Below, piece after piece: positions 20,720-63,522 of a DNA stretch of 64,000 nucleotides. The translations under genes were made by a program, and so were the position numbers. The notes beneath the pieces are model-generated. The model had not been told where the DNA came from and ran no database searches. It saw only the letters and a list, made by a program, of their open reading frames with translations. How positions within the stretch are numbered: position 1 is the first letter of the stretch; the number at the start of each line of letters is the position of its first letter. This stretch comes from Eledone cirrhosa (taxonomy: Eukaryota), in contig OZ024740.1 of NCBI GenBank assembly GCA_964016885.1, forward strand, positions 47,430,001 to 47,494,000, given 5' to 3'.

Positions 20720-20755
20720 GTATTAAAGATGCCACACTGGTATGCACGTGCCTTG
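20720..20755 (-). CDS. micro-exon E13 (36 nt): (P)RHVHTSVASLI
   Basis: ttttcttaattttag acceptor, gtaagt donor, phase 1-1, paralog of E7/E12. Confidence 0.75.
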
Positions 20756-21949
20756 CTAAAATTAAGAAAATAAACATTAATGTAACTTATTTTAATAGTT
20801 GTATCAGTCATTAAACATCAAATATTTAATGTGAAGTACTTAATATTTATCTAATTCTTTATATTTTTCAACATTTATTTATAATTATATGGCTATCATT
20901 ATTTATCTTACATTTTTTAATTTTTGTAATTAAAAATTATAATTAAAAATTGTAATTAAAAATTATCGTCAATTTCTATACGATGATGAGTTATTTATTT
21001 TCTTCATTTTCTTGTATAGAATGTTGATTAGATAAAGAATTGAAAATTAAACAAAATATTATTTCGGATTTAAAATTTTTATATGGAAACTGTAAGAATG
21101 GGATTAAATATAAATTATTTAAACTAACATTAATGTCTAAAATTGACTGCAGATAATGTTTGGCTGTTTGTGTATTTTATTTTGAATCAAATTGGCAATG
21201 AATCATTTATTTATTATTACTCAATTTAAACGCCTGCAGAGAGCTAACAACCTATGGCAGACTCGGGAGAAGTATCGAATACTCCTTACAGTTGGTAATC
21301 AAAAAGAGCTAGTGTGACAAGTAATAAAAAAGAAATGAAAAAAGGAAAAGATGAAAAATAAAAATATATAAAATCTAAAATGAAATTTAAAAAACGAAAA
21401 GGAGGAAAATGAAATAACAAAAATAACATTCCAAATATTGAAGGCCAGTGGGGTGAAGATTATAATTGTTTGATTGAATATGAGTGGAAAGACATACTTC
21501 TGACCACAAAAAAATATCCGCATTTTTGCAGTGGGGTAAATAAAATAAAATAAAATAAAATAAAATAAAAACGTTTTATTAATTTTCATTTTGCCATCAA
21601 TGAAAAGAGTGCTGTATGTATTTAACAAAGAATATATATTGTTTTGAGATTTTCAATATCTAATTCAATTTCATAAGTTTAATCCAGTATAGACTATGAG
21701 TATTTCTTTTCTATGTTGTAAATCAAAAGTAGTTTCCAATAGGACTATTAATTAACTAACGTGGTAATTACGAAAGACAGTTAATTATATTACTTGTATA
21801 CATGTAAACCGTTATAATAAACAATGAAATTCTTTAAATGTAACATCTAGAAGACAGTGTCTTCTTTAAATATTTCTTATTGAAACTGCTGGAATATGTA
21901 ACACGGGTAATTATATATATATATATATATATATATATATATATATATA

Positions 21950-24920
21950 AACAATGAGTCAATTGATTTGTTGATTATTCAACAAAGTTGATTTACAACA
22001 GATTAGAACCTCTCAACGGGTTTTTCCGGATTATCATTAATATCAATAATATTAATAAATGGAAAATATCTTTATAAAACCATATTTATTTTATTATACG
22101 TATTTCAAGGGTACTAATATTTTAGTACGCTTTCGTCAGATAAAATACAATGATTGGTGTAAAGATTGTGACATATCTTCATGTGAACTTCATGTTATAA
22201 ATTCATTGGAACGGTACAAATGAAGTAATAGATTGGTTTGTAGACATTAAATCTAAAAATAATACAGAACTTATACAAATGGATATAGCTAATCACTATT
22301 CTTCAATAACTCCTAATTTACTTAATAAACCACTAATATACGCATCAAAGCATACTGACTTATCTACTGAAGAAATAAACATTATATTAACTGCACGAAA
22401 CTCTCTTATTGAATTTAACAATGATCTCTGGACTAGAGCTGATAGACGGGACAACTTCGATATTACCATGGGCTCCTCTGACTCAGCTCAGGTTACAGAT
22501 TTGGTTGGAATATTCATTCTTAATGCCTTACATAGGAAATTGCCGGAAATTACCGGAGGTTTATATTGTGATGATGCGTTATTTATAGTTGATAAACATA
22601 ACAATAGTGAACTTAGCAGAAAAAAAGAAAATTATTATAGACTTTTTTAATAATTATGGCCTTAAATTAGAAATAGAAAATGATAATAAAATTGTTAACT
22701 TCTTAGATGTTACACTAAACCTTAACTCAGGCCTATATTACCCGTTCCATAAGATTAATGAAAACCTAAACTACGTTAGCTTCTACTCTAACCACCCTAG
22801 AAATGTTAAAAAGGCTATAGTTAATAGTGTCCAGCAAAGAATATCTAGACTCTCAGCTAATAAAAATATATTTGATAACAAAGCAGAATATTACAATGTC
22901 GCTCTACACGGAGTTGGATACAATAATAAAATTAACTACGTAGATAAGAATACTCTACACCAACCTCCTAAAGTTTATTATAATATTAATAATAATCAAA
23001 TTAACCAAAATAATAAATCAAATAAGACACTGTCTTCTAGATGTTATATTTAAAGACATTTCATTGTTTATTATAACGGTTTACATGTATACAAGTAATA
23101 TAATTAACTGTCTTTCGTAATTACCACGTCAGAACTAGAAATATAATTTGGTATTCTCCTCCAATTTCATTAGGAATTAAGACACCTTTAACACACCAAT
23201 TCTTTAAGGCTTTAGATAAATGTTTTCCTAAGTCTCATAAGTATCACTCTATTTTTAACAGACATACAGTCAAGCTCTCTTACTCTACTATTATGAATAT
23301 ATCCCAGAATGTTGCTAGAATTAATAATAGGAATTTAAAATTAAACTCAACCCAAATAAACTCAAATAGCAATAACAATATAATTAATAACTTTACGTAT
23401 AATAATAATAGTGAATGCATAAATAATAATACCGTATCTCTAAATAACAATATTAGAAAATGTAATTGCAGAAATAACATATCATGCCCTTTACGGAATA
23501 ATTGCCTTGATAGAAGTTTAGTATTCAAATGCACCATAAAAACTAGAGATAGATTATATAATTATATAGGAACTACTTCTTTAAAATTTAAGGACCGTTG
23601 GATAATCATAAACATACTTTCAAACGATCGGACAAAAAATTCTCAACCTCAATTTCACAATTAATTTGGTCTTTAAAAGACAGTAACACTGACTATTCAA
23701 TCTCTTGGCGAAAGATATCGAATGCGGCAGTTTACCAAAATATGGCTCTCTCAAGAATTTGTCATCTCTGTATTGAAGAAATCTTTCATATAATTACCAA
23801 TCCTGGTAATATTATTAACAAAAAAAAGGAAATATATAATTCTTGTTTGCATCGATTCTCCAGAACATTTCACAATATTTACAATTTATAGAAAATACAA
23901 CACATTGTCTGTGTAAGTTGCCTATGTACAATATATATATTTTTGTTGTCTTTATAAATTCTTAAATTTATACATAGAAATACATATTATTATCAAAATT
24001 TACTATATGGTGCTCTGAAAACTTATAGAAATTTTTACTTATATTTATAATATATATTATAATTAATTATTAGGTTAAACATTACATAAAACAATATATC
24101 TTTAAATAATATACCTTCCTTAAATTACTAAAGACTAGAGTTTATAATTCACACATACGAGACATCCAAATTTAATATAAATGTTTAAATTTATATAACT
24201 AACTTTATACAATAATAGATTATACATAATATTATACATCTTCACTTTAAAAAATATGATTATTTTTACATTCTTAAGGTATATATAAAAAAGCATATAT
24301 GTTATCGCTTGATATATCTTACGCTCTTTCCTAATTTGATGTCTATATATATATACTTAAATAAGATCTATATTCACGCCTAATCATTTATGTACTAAAT
24401 AAATGTTTTTAATAACCATATACAATAATGTCTTATAATACAATAGATTATATTTATAACTGCAGTCATCATATTAAAATATATGCGTAAAATATAACCA
24501 ATCGTATATCTTTCACATATTATATTGTTGTAATTGCTTTAATAATTTAATAGTTCTCAATTTAATACATTACATTTTAATTCTCACCTAAATATTATAA
24601 ATACTTCCATATTCTTAAAATATATTATAAAATTAAATAAATAAATAACCATAATTATATCATTCTTTCTATACCCATGTAAATATGTTTGGGTGTATAT
24701 ATGCATATTTCTATAAATAATCCTAAATTAACTTTACAATATTTTTTTCAAATTTAATAGCAAATTCTTTTCAAAGATATTTAGATGAATATTTAAAATC
24801 TATCTAGCGATTAAACTTAACGGTCCTTTTCAGTTTTAACGTTATCCTCATTGGCATATTTCCACTGAGTTTTGACAAATTAAATTCACTATCTTCAATG
24901 AAATTATAACATGAAGTTCA
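21950..24920 (+). mobile_element. Penelope-like element, copy 2
   Basis: Same ORF fragments as 17373-18740 (22279-23891). Confidence 0.9.
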
Positions 24921-25344
24921 TATGGGGGGGGGGGGGGGGCGGATTGCGATCCTGTGTCCGCCTAACGAAGCCAGTGTCTGGTACTGATTTCTCCAGGTTG
25001 CCGCTGGAGAAAGTATCGCAGCAAGTCGCATCTCAATTTAGGAACTTGCCGCTTTGGAGCAGAAAAGGTTTTGAGGCCGTTTGGTATTTGCCGTTTTTTT
25101 CGGTCTAATCTTATTATTATAGTTGTAGTGGCACCCCTGCTTGGTACAAACCACATGTGACAATATCGTTTAGATTGACCTGCTGAGGGGAACAGCCAGC
25201 GTTAAGACGGTATGTCAACGGGTGGAATCTGGAAATGTCAACCGTTGATCCGTAACGGCTTTTGTGTTGCTCATAGACCTGACTACAAATCCTATTTATA
25301 TATATATAGATATAACTATAGATTTTACATAATGAAATACTTAC

Positions 25345-61788: not shown

Positions 61789-61829
61789 CGTTGCTGACGA
61801 TAGATAATAAGCTTGAAATTAGTACAGCG
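61789..61829 (+). ncRNA. degenerate minimal hammerhead in a Penelope remnant (61480-62040)
   Basis: cgttg-CTGACGA-tagataataagctt-GAAA-ttag-TA-cagcg, preceded by a HKESIYFQTF GIY-YIG-tail-like peptide. Flanks are inverted copies of 56850-57040. Confidence 0.55.
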
Positions 61830-63453
61830 TTCCTTTGTCAGTGTTGAACAAATGAGCAACGATGGTTGCTAGATACTGTACGGCTTAATTCGGGATGTTT
61901 ATTTACAAACACACCGAGCATTATAATAAATGTTCGGTGAATCCATACGTCCATATATATATGTGTGCATGTATGTATATATATATACATACTACTGTAC
62001 GTCTGTATACATATATGTATGTACGTATACATACTTATATATATATATATATATATATATATATATATATATATATATATATATATATATATATATATAC
62101 ATTATATATATATATCCATTATATATATATATTTATATATATATATATATATATATATATATAAATAATAGTGTTTGGTAACATATTTTAATGTATATAT
62201 ATATATATATATATATATATATATATATATATATATATAAATAATAGTGTTTGGTAACATATTTTAATGTATATATATATATATATATATATATATATAT
62301 ATATATATATATATATATATATATATGTAACGAAGGAAATGTGGTAAGGAACCAGGTGGACCATAACACACCAAAGTACTCAATACTTAGGGTAGTAGAG
62401 TGGGTAATAGGAACGAGTAAGGGGGGGGGGATTCTGAATTAATTTTCCGTATCAAATTTTTCATGTACCTCGTACGAGCATTTATGTAGTTTGCACTAGA
62501 ATTTTTGTATCGTAGCGGCGCCCTTAGAGATAGTATTAGTATTCATTTTCAGGATCCTGAATTATTATTTCGTATTAGTTTATTTTATGCACTGGGTGGT
62601 TGCTAGTTTCGGGACTCTGAATTATTATTTCGTGGTAGTTTCTTTAGTATTTTGGCCCCCCACTTGTTGACCTGTCACCGTAAGATATACTCGGTTGATT
62701 ACTACTAACTCTTAAAATGGTCTCATTACAATTCCGTCCCACCTAGTAAACTTTTCTATAGTCTAGCAGTACCAGTGAGAGACTTGATGACTGTCGTTAG
62801 GGAATAGTAAGCAGAAATTGTTTTTTTTATATTTTTAACATTCTTGGTATTCTTCTATATATTTACTCTATATTGATTTACTTATTGTTTCGACTTCCTC
62901 CCCCTCCCCCTCCCTAGTATACTTGCTTGACCTCCTGCCCTGCTATAGTTGGCACTATCAACGCACGACTGGGTTTCCTCCACTCCCTCTCCTTCTCCCT
63001 CTGTCTTCTACTGGCAGGTTCAGCTACCCCTTCCTTCCACAAATTGCCATGATAGAATTATGTGTCTCAACAACAAACTTTTGACCAATCCTTGTGACAA
63101 TCACTTTTACCATATATGGAATTACCTCCTGAGAAGCTCGGCTATTCATATACCAGGATAAAAATGTTCATTTAGTCCAGAATTAGCCGTCGAAACGGCT
63201 TGAGCTCAGCCGTCGGGGTCCTACTCGTTCCTATATATATGTGTATGTATATATACATTAAAATATGTTACCAAACACTATTATTTATTTTACAATTGTT
63301 TCATCCTCGTGGGACTCAGCGAAATTAACCAATATATAAATAAATAACTCAACAAGTTCATCTTTTCGGACGCACAGAGAAAGTAAGACATGAATACATA
63401 CATATCAATTAACATCATTATAAATTTTAAAAGGAAATTTCCAGAATACTTAC

Positions 63454-63522
63454 CATTATTGTAGATAATATAAGGATGTGCACCACTTATGAAATTATGT
63501 GTTGGCATGTGGGCACTGATAT
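63454..63522 (-). CDS. exon E1 (69 nt): xISAHMPTHNFISGAHPYIIYNN
   Basis: aaatacag acceptor (weak pyrimidine tract), ATG|gtaagt donor, phase 1-1, in frame with E2. Confidence 0.6.

Follow-up and report, generated by a model that had tools for sequence, protein, structure and literature searches.

Introduction

Micro-exon diversifiers have been described mainly in parasites, as the micro-exon genes (MEGs) of schistosomes and the bicycle genes of aphids. Here, we describe a gene of comparable design on the minus strand of a 64,000-nucleotide stretch of the octopod Eledone cirrhosa (GenBank assembly GCA_964016885.1, contig OZ024740.1, positions 47,430,001 to 47,494,000; the window). The gene is real, large, and apparently undescribed, with 38 exons over 152 kb, of which the window holds 13, and its architecture is an independent variant of the known design. 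We hold with moderate confidence that this octopod gene, restricted to its lineage and present in one copy, encodes a secreted, low-complexity protein almost free of cysteine, and that it grows and shrinks by exon duplication under diversifying selection, with some exon skipping. If this is true, the octopus case places the design in free-living molluscs as well.

In the portions of the cited papers available, Schistosoma MEGs resemble the octopus gene in having a signal peptide, short symmetric exons, and long introns, and in a transposon-rich locus, exon duplication, fast amino-acid change, and mucin-like members (PMC4350168, PMC5825161, 10.1101/2023.06.21.545858). About 80% of a MEG coding region lies in symmetric exons of 6 to 36 nt (PMC5825161, in part); the first-pass annotation, which called the locus MEG-like, had noted that MEGs use arrays of symmetric exons of ≤36 nt. 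The full gene breaks the 80% size rule, with 40% of coding sequence in exons of ≤36 nt (89% in exons of ≤45 nt, 92% in exons of ≤51 nt); the 13 window exons alone reach 85% (≤36 nt). A wider range of symmetric MEG exons, 6 to 81 nt in the accessible text of 10.1101/2023.06.21.545858, accommodates 37/37 internal exons. The predicted secretion signal (hydrophobic core plus A-x-A at residue 26) is as in MEGs, and accelerated coding evolution is as in MEGs for two exon types only (A and E7). Most MEG exons measure 15 nt, with 10 to 20 exons and introns of up to 5 kb, whereas the octopus gene has a median of 39 nt and 38 exons over 152 kb. MEGs form a gene family that, in the text available, "appear to be restricted to platyhelminths"; the octopus gene is single, lies in a free-living mollusc, and has no detected homology to MEGs (exon E1 searched). 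Judged by size rule, host, and absence of homology found, it is not a MEG member.

Aphid bicycle and megacycle genes are similar in their many one-phase micro-exons, secreted products, strong positive selection, and invisibility to sequence searches (10.1101/2021.09.24.461719, accessible part). They differ, in the same part, by phase 2, a CYC cysteine motif, and families of hundreds, against phase 1, one Cys, and a single copy here; only 15/37 octopus exons are open in phase 2, and paired CYC motifs are lacking. The genes of alpha-s caseins (CSN1S1 and CSN1S2), secreted vertebrate phosphoproteins with many 18- to 24-nt exons, share exon duplication and exon loss by splice-site mutation, and also skip exons, as the octopus gene would; they span ~17 kb (PMC12470106, as far as its available text goes). 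Tropoelastin, a single gene, shares phase 1:1 at all borders, alternating exon types, and a low-complexity, disordered, secreted product, and shows cassette skipping; it differs by a conserved structural role and by Gly-rich and Lys cross-link exons, and exon-over-intron acceleration is not seen in the part of the source available (PMC12554196). With uniform-phase short exons arising by duplication and lost via splice-site mutation, the octopus gene is like caseins and tropoelastin in its working, with no homologue found (E1 plus intron read-through searched). Alpha-s casein exons are in phase 0. Bicycle genes, caseins, and tropoelastin show, in the sources as available, that short-exon cassette genes for secreted proteins arose several times.

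Gene structure

In a genome of 3.0 Gb, 350 kb around the window was examined, with coordinates above 64000 continuing the window numbering (position on the source contig, G000:C1, is 47,430,000 plus the coordinate). The first-pass annotation had proposed a hidden minus-strand gene of 13 exons, and this gene is borne out by a promoter, an ATG, a signal peptide, and strand, flank, and shuffle controls. All 13 exons had been placed correctly (13/13 AG..GT units on the minus strand, with lengths divisible by 3 and no phase-1 stop), in a list that was incomplete: they form the 3' third only, and another 25 exons were located beyond the window on its upstream side. The model consists of the ATG exon, 24 symmetric phase-1 exons upstream of the window, and the 13 within it, joining to 1399 nt or 466 codons without a stop. 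Internal exons (18 to 69 nt; median, 39 nt) are symmetric in phase 1 in 37/37 cases and are separated by introns of 217 to 33,801 nt. As had been claimed, any subset can be skipped in frame, since 0/703 possible exon-exon junctions create a stop. The signal exon, expected past position 64000, was found there, with its ATG ~108.6 kb upstream of the window end; the predicted signal peptide has 26 residues across three exons (hydropathy and the [-3,-1] rule).

172638, minus: TATA box, 30 nt before the initiator-like motif
172608, minus: initiator-like motif
172577-172538, minus: exon 1, with ATG at 172577 and phase-1 donor at 172538
168389-168360, minus: exon 2, 30 nt, hydrophobic core of the signal peptide
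168142-168092, minus: exon 3, A-x-A site of the signal peptide
168389-163993, minus: exons 2-5, with exons 4 and 5 starting at 165782 and 164031
130191-120407, minus: exons 6-10, starting at 130191, 124794, 124194, 121737, and 120448
117992-99187, minus: Pro/Thr-rich array with exons 11-21 and seven disabled copies; exon starts 117992, 116073, 111817, 111142, 110190, 109435, 107954, 105703, 104943, 103462, and 102518
97784-81967, minus: exons 22-24, starting at 97784, 96779, and 81993
64307-64269, minus: exon 25
63523..64000, minus: intron where the gene exits the window
63454..63522, minus: E1 (model exon 26), 69 nt, longest internal exon; acceptor weak (-0.2), donor 6.8
57136..57171, minus: E2, 36 nt, basic, an old duplicate of E3 with 620 nt of flank homology; donor weak
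54125..54151, minus: E3, 27 nt, Lys/His-rich
51104..51130, minus: E4, 27 nt; another in-frame donor 48 nt downstream would give 75 nt
50366..50401, minus: E5, 36 nt, strong splice sites
48324..48347, minus: E6, 24 nt, "constant" module with the same sequence as E11; acceptor weak
46915..46950, minus: E7, 36 nt, "variable" family with E12 and E13
42369..42401, minus: E8, 33 nt, one family with E9 and E10
35448..35480, minus: E9, 33 nt, with only 2 changes from E10, both synonymous
28619..28651, minus: E10, 33 nt
27446..27469, minus: E11, 24 nt, copy of E6
25345..25380, minus: E12, 36 nt
20720..20755, minus: E13, 36 nt, last exon found

By hand-set splice-site scores, acceptors are weak at E1, E6, and E11 and donors at E2, E3, and E4. 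The window exons are not independent (E6=E11, E7~E12~E13, E8~E9~E10, and E2~E3~E4). E2 to E4 were accepted because their shared flanking homology is well above shuffled scores; the E4-E5 flank match is not above chance (49, against a shuffle maximum of 53).

Two A exons (starting at 111142 and 110190) have a second in-frame acceptor 6 nt downstream, giving starts at 111136 and 110184. An RGD motif arises over the exon 5-6 junction (163993/130191), and E6/E11 bear RGE in a similar N-R-G context, possibly by chance. Kept out of the model were a 71-nt Pro-rich candidate (68298-68228) that has a good donor and no phase-1 stop yet lacks symmetry, two 45-nt candidates (118720 and 118378), and transposon-borne candidates of 18, 39, and 54 nt.

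Controls against chance

To escape selection on symmetry, acceptors and donors were scored and paired regardless of length, with weights that were hand-set from general knowledge and revised after exons had been seen. The minus strand of the window gave 9 candidates, 8 of them symmetric and open in phase 1 (one being E4 with a different donor, likewise in frame), and the plus strand gave 2, of which 1 qualified; only 7/13 window exons were recovered exactly. Over the whole gene, counts of candidates, symmetric candidates, and those also open were 39/34/31 on the minus strand and 11/3/2 on the plus strand. The 257 kb of flanks held 16/6/2 and 14/2/0, and 10 Markov shuffles averaged 5.4/1.7/0.9 (maximum, 10/5/3). 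After duplicates were merged into families, 18/21 were symmetric on the gene strand (p=1.1e-6) versus 3/11 on the other strand. The plus strand and shuffled DNA, proposed by the first-pass annotation as the comparison that could undo its claim, hold symmetric units far more rarely than the gene strand does. A second scan, with weights trained on the gene's exons, regained 32/40 known units and gave no convincing new exon. Model exons are open in phase 0 in 12/37 cases and in phase 2 in 15/37.

Duplication history

Recent tandem duplications (16740..27647, 92-98% identical to 42443-48525) gave rise to E11-E13, with E6-E7 copied as E11-E12 and E7 copied once more as E13. E8-E10 form a second family, now split apart by long interspersed nuclear elements (LINEs) and a helicase fragment. 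Upstream, an array of four units of ~2.25 kb carries one A exon and one B exon per unit; the A exons measure 36, 36, 45, 42, and 39 nt, every one a multiple of 3.

Divergence between certain duplicated exons amounts to 17-33%, compared with 1-6% in their introns and almost none in the partner exon. E7 and E12 differ at 6/36 exon positions and 16/1481 intron positions (p=6.6e-6), E7 and E13 at 8/36 and 12/835. In 5/6 pairs of A exons, 11-13 of 36-39 positions differ, against 2.4-5.6% in the intron (p<=2.3e-7), while the B exons of those units differ at 0-3 sites and E6/E11 at 0/24. Exons thus diverge faster than introns in 2/5 young families (A and E7 types); the E8 type is borderline, and the B and E6 types are conserved. 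CpG transitions number at most 1 per exon pair. That a constant exon adjoins a variable exon in one unit argues for selection on particular modules, as we infer; intron-biased gene conversion could contribute to the contrast. The diverged letters of E12/E13 occur in raw-DNA contigs of two of three public runs and are therefore not assembly errors. These runs are genomic DNA of one sample, perhaps the assembly's source, and gave no exon-exon joint among the matches listed.

Disabled copies

Seven look-alike copies in the Pro/Thr array are disabled.

113605, 101339, and 99225, minus: copies with the donor GT lost
about 113080, minus: copy with the acceptor lost
115033, 114022, and 107191, minus: frameshifted 38-nt copies with intact splice sites

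Copies 115033 and 114022 are old (~75% identical to their siblings), and 107191, a B copy, has site scores of 4.9/5.1, versus 4.3/5.1 for intact copies. Strong sites are no proof of inclusion, because the introns also contain decoys that have consensus sites but break the frame. Either the 38-nt copies would be skipped, which hints at loose exon inclusion, or the haplotype would be truncated.

Predicted product

The product would have at least 466 residues; those in the model (P, 14%; A, 10%; T, 8%; N, 8%; H, 6%; K, 6%) include one Cys, with a calculated pI of 9.6 and no membrane-spanning segment after residue 30 (maximum 19-residue hydropathy, 0.88). A His/Lys-rich product had been claimed from the window, which holds for the 3' third (H, 10%; K+R, 12%) and not for the whole model, which is Pro/Ala/Thr/Asn-rich. 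The N-terminal part is charged (D+E, 21%; K+R, 19%) and is followed by ~210 residues with 0-1% acidic; the Pro/Thr-rich array has 26% P and 18% S+T, and the tail is richer in His, Lys, and Tyr. From its composition, the protein is probably disordered and its Pro/Thr-rich middle likely O-glycosylated. No known domain was found, in keeping with the earlier annotation, and a Pfam search of E1 gave no match.

Relatives and host

Searches of the own genome with five DNA queries (exon 1, exons 2-3, an A exon, E6-E7, and E8) found no second gene copy; apart from local copies and common repeats, they returned a single isolated exon 2 relic that retains its acceptor flank.

243703-243674, minus: exon 2 relic, 71 kb upstream of the promoter

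None of the gene's remaining exons was found near this relic. E1 with intron read-through, the only homologue query, gave no candidate among proteins of 71-2000 residues, which is weak evidence because a single short exon was searched; two matches of the full E1 scan were rejected as unrelated tandem-repeat open reading frames (ORFs) whose scores summed weak stretches. No cephalopod gene of comparable kind was found in the literature covered, which left out subscription journals and supplements. As a lead for where to look, a squid reproductive gland is enriched in orphan genes (PMC6386654, accessible part).

Molluscan haemocyanin genes in the genome (39 matches) agree with the cephalopod host presumed from the sequence. 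The best single-unit scores were 655 bits for 4yd9 and 647 bits for 1js8, which we take to be squid and octopus haemocyanin, and other single-unit entries reached <=456 bits. Genes on contig C26 have seven units each, presumably the octopod number.

Interpretation

Under the reading favored here, the gene would grow when unequal crossing-over, within introns rich in repeats, duplicates an exon in tandem together with its intron. Because only symmetric phase-1 exons tolerate duplication and loss, these alone would survive, and this would by itself suffice for the uniform phase. After duplication, some exons would be driven to amino-acid divergence while their neighbours were held constant, and surplus copies would die through splice-site loss or frameshift. 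The main mRNA would probably retain the majority of intact exons and skip some, much as in caseins or tropoelastin. The product would most likely serve in a gland or surface secretion (mucus, cement, or the coat of an egg or spermatophore) facing a partner that changes fast, for instance microbes or gametes.

Several points weigh against this reading. DNA shows the anatomy of the gene, its duplication history, the faster divergence of exons than of introns, and the dead copies, whereas expression, secretion, and skipping are what we infer, and any tissue or partner is guesswork. Symmetry was part of how exons were picked, and no convincing last or stop exon was found within 56 kb downstream. 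Divergence falls short of significance for E12 vs E13 (p=0.06) and for one A pair (p=0.10). The pairs are also interdependent, 5/6 changes between E7 and E12 fall within 9 nt and perhaps represent fewer events, and the comparison of A exons of unequal length allowed no internal gaps. Non-synonymous:synonymous counts (4:1, 2:0, 5:0, 0:2, 4:1, 8.8:1.2, and 9:0) are too near ~3:1 to prove selection on their own. Finally, inclusion of any 38-nt copy, all three of which keep consensus sites, cuts the product to 166-228 residues.

A more tentative account, appreciably less probable and close to the combinatorial diversification proposed by the first-pass annotation, is a MEG-style device in which stochastic exon inclusion yields a large isoform pool selected at a host-microbe, predator-prey, or sperm-egg interface. 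The 37/37 symmetric phase-1 exons, the 0/703 stop-making junctions, and several weak splice sites fit it, as does accelerated evolution, reported for MEGs (PMC4350168) and bicycle genes (10.1101/2021.09.24.461719) in the parts of those papers available; copy 107191 has strong sites, yet the exons downstream show signs of recent coding selection, which is easiest explained by partial inclusion. Duplication alone, however, yields symmetry, the frame-breaking intron decoys mean that strong sites need not imply inclusion, and this is one gene rather than a family, with exons bigger than typical MEG exons. Equally tentative is the boldest version, a free-living cephalopod with an independently evolved MEG-like diversifier, a single 150-kb locus of ~37 in-frame cassettes. 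Its variable and constant modules would be renewed by birth and death of exons under positive selection and spliced combinatorially into many secreted isoforms, even poison copies being tolerated, with a role in defence, the handling of prey, or recognition between gametes. We regard as unlikely a prepro-polyprotein in which each exon encodes one peptide module and cleavage releases short cationic peptides rich in Pro and His, with an antimicrobial, pheromone, or salivary role. The charged N-terminal segment ahead of ~210 nearly acid-free residues, the six dibasic sites, and the fast-evolving modules suit such a precursor, and exon 7 encodes a DP-EA-EA run. This run is like the X-Pro/X-Ala pro-segments of insect peptide precursors. 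The likeness was not found in the available part of PMC2853521. The dibasic sites are few and not between repeats, there is no amidation pattern and no cysteine scaffold, and E1, the sole exon searched, has no family match.

Slightly less probable again is a recent truncation of the gene or haplotype, in which a spliced-in 38-nt copy would give a 166-residue product or decay and the window exons would be relics. It would account for three frameshifted copies with intact GT/AG, four further dead copies, weak sites at E1, E2, E6, and E11, and a heavy transposon load. Yet phase 1 is open in each of the 26 intact exons that follow the first lesions, changes between the youngest duplicates, at 1% intron divergence, are still amino-acid-biased or synonymous only, and copies 115033 and 114022 are old, so that downstream decay would be expected. 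An artefact, either AG..GT pairs arising by chance where DNA is AT-rich or duplicates created by the assembly, could draw on the selection on symmetry, the nearby gap, and copies of 96-98% identity that could partly be haplotypes; the strand, flank, and shuffle controls, the promoter and signal peptide, the paralogue letters in raw DNA, and three E7 copies and five A copies, which exceed two haplotypes, largely refute this explanation and make it very improbable.

Apart from these rivals, the locus catches the process of duplication and loss, with young duplicates, diverged exons, dead copies, and partner exons whose constancy provides an internal control; together, these allow one to test directly if uniform phase is a duplication by-product or is used for splicing variety. 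Such genes are likely missed by standard annotation, and cephalopod genomes may therefore hold more.

3' end and other features

The following features lie at or near the 3' end and elsewhere in the genome.

16540..16739: assembly gap
17295-18740, 22201-23664, and 43.4-44.9 kb, plus: broken retroelement with reverse transcriptase (RT)- and endonuclease-like ORFs
29.4-41 kb: transposon cluster between E8 and E10
29442-29873: Pif1-type helicase fragment
32386-34977, 36082-37296, and 38340-40733: three RVT_1 ORFs
C1:173.7-173.9 Mb: three haemocyanin gene copies
C26:21.9-22.0 Mb: two inverted haemocyanin gene copies (at least five copies in all)
C27:61-67 kb: two divergent haemocyanin units

By colinearity of the duplication, the gap may hide an E8-type exon ~0.5 kb past its edge, and the terminal or stop exon probably lies in it too. 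Last-exon candidates at 15399, 14595, 914, 502, and others were unconvincing. On the minus strand, a YAG-5 nt-GTAAGT unit at ~18890-18900, within a repeated intron stretch, is probably due to chance. The broken retroelement occupies the intron that follows E7 and was duplicated with that exon three times; we take it to be Penelope-like, and a Pfam search of the three ORFs of its first copy gave no match. A short minus-strand ORF (11986-12420), without a Pfam match, is presumably a Tc1/mariner transposase-like fragment. At 1238-2630, short tandem 3' pieces in inverted orientation are 96-98% identical to the LINE at 32.2-35.2 kb.

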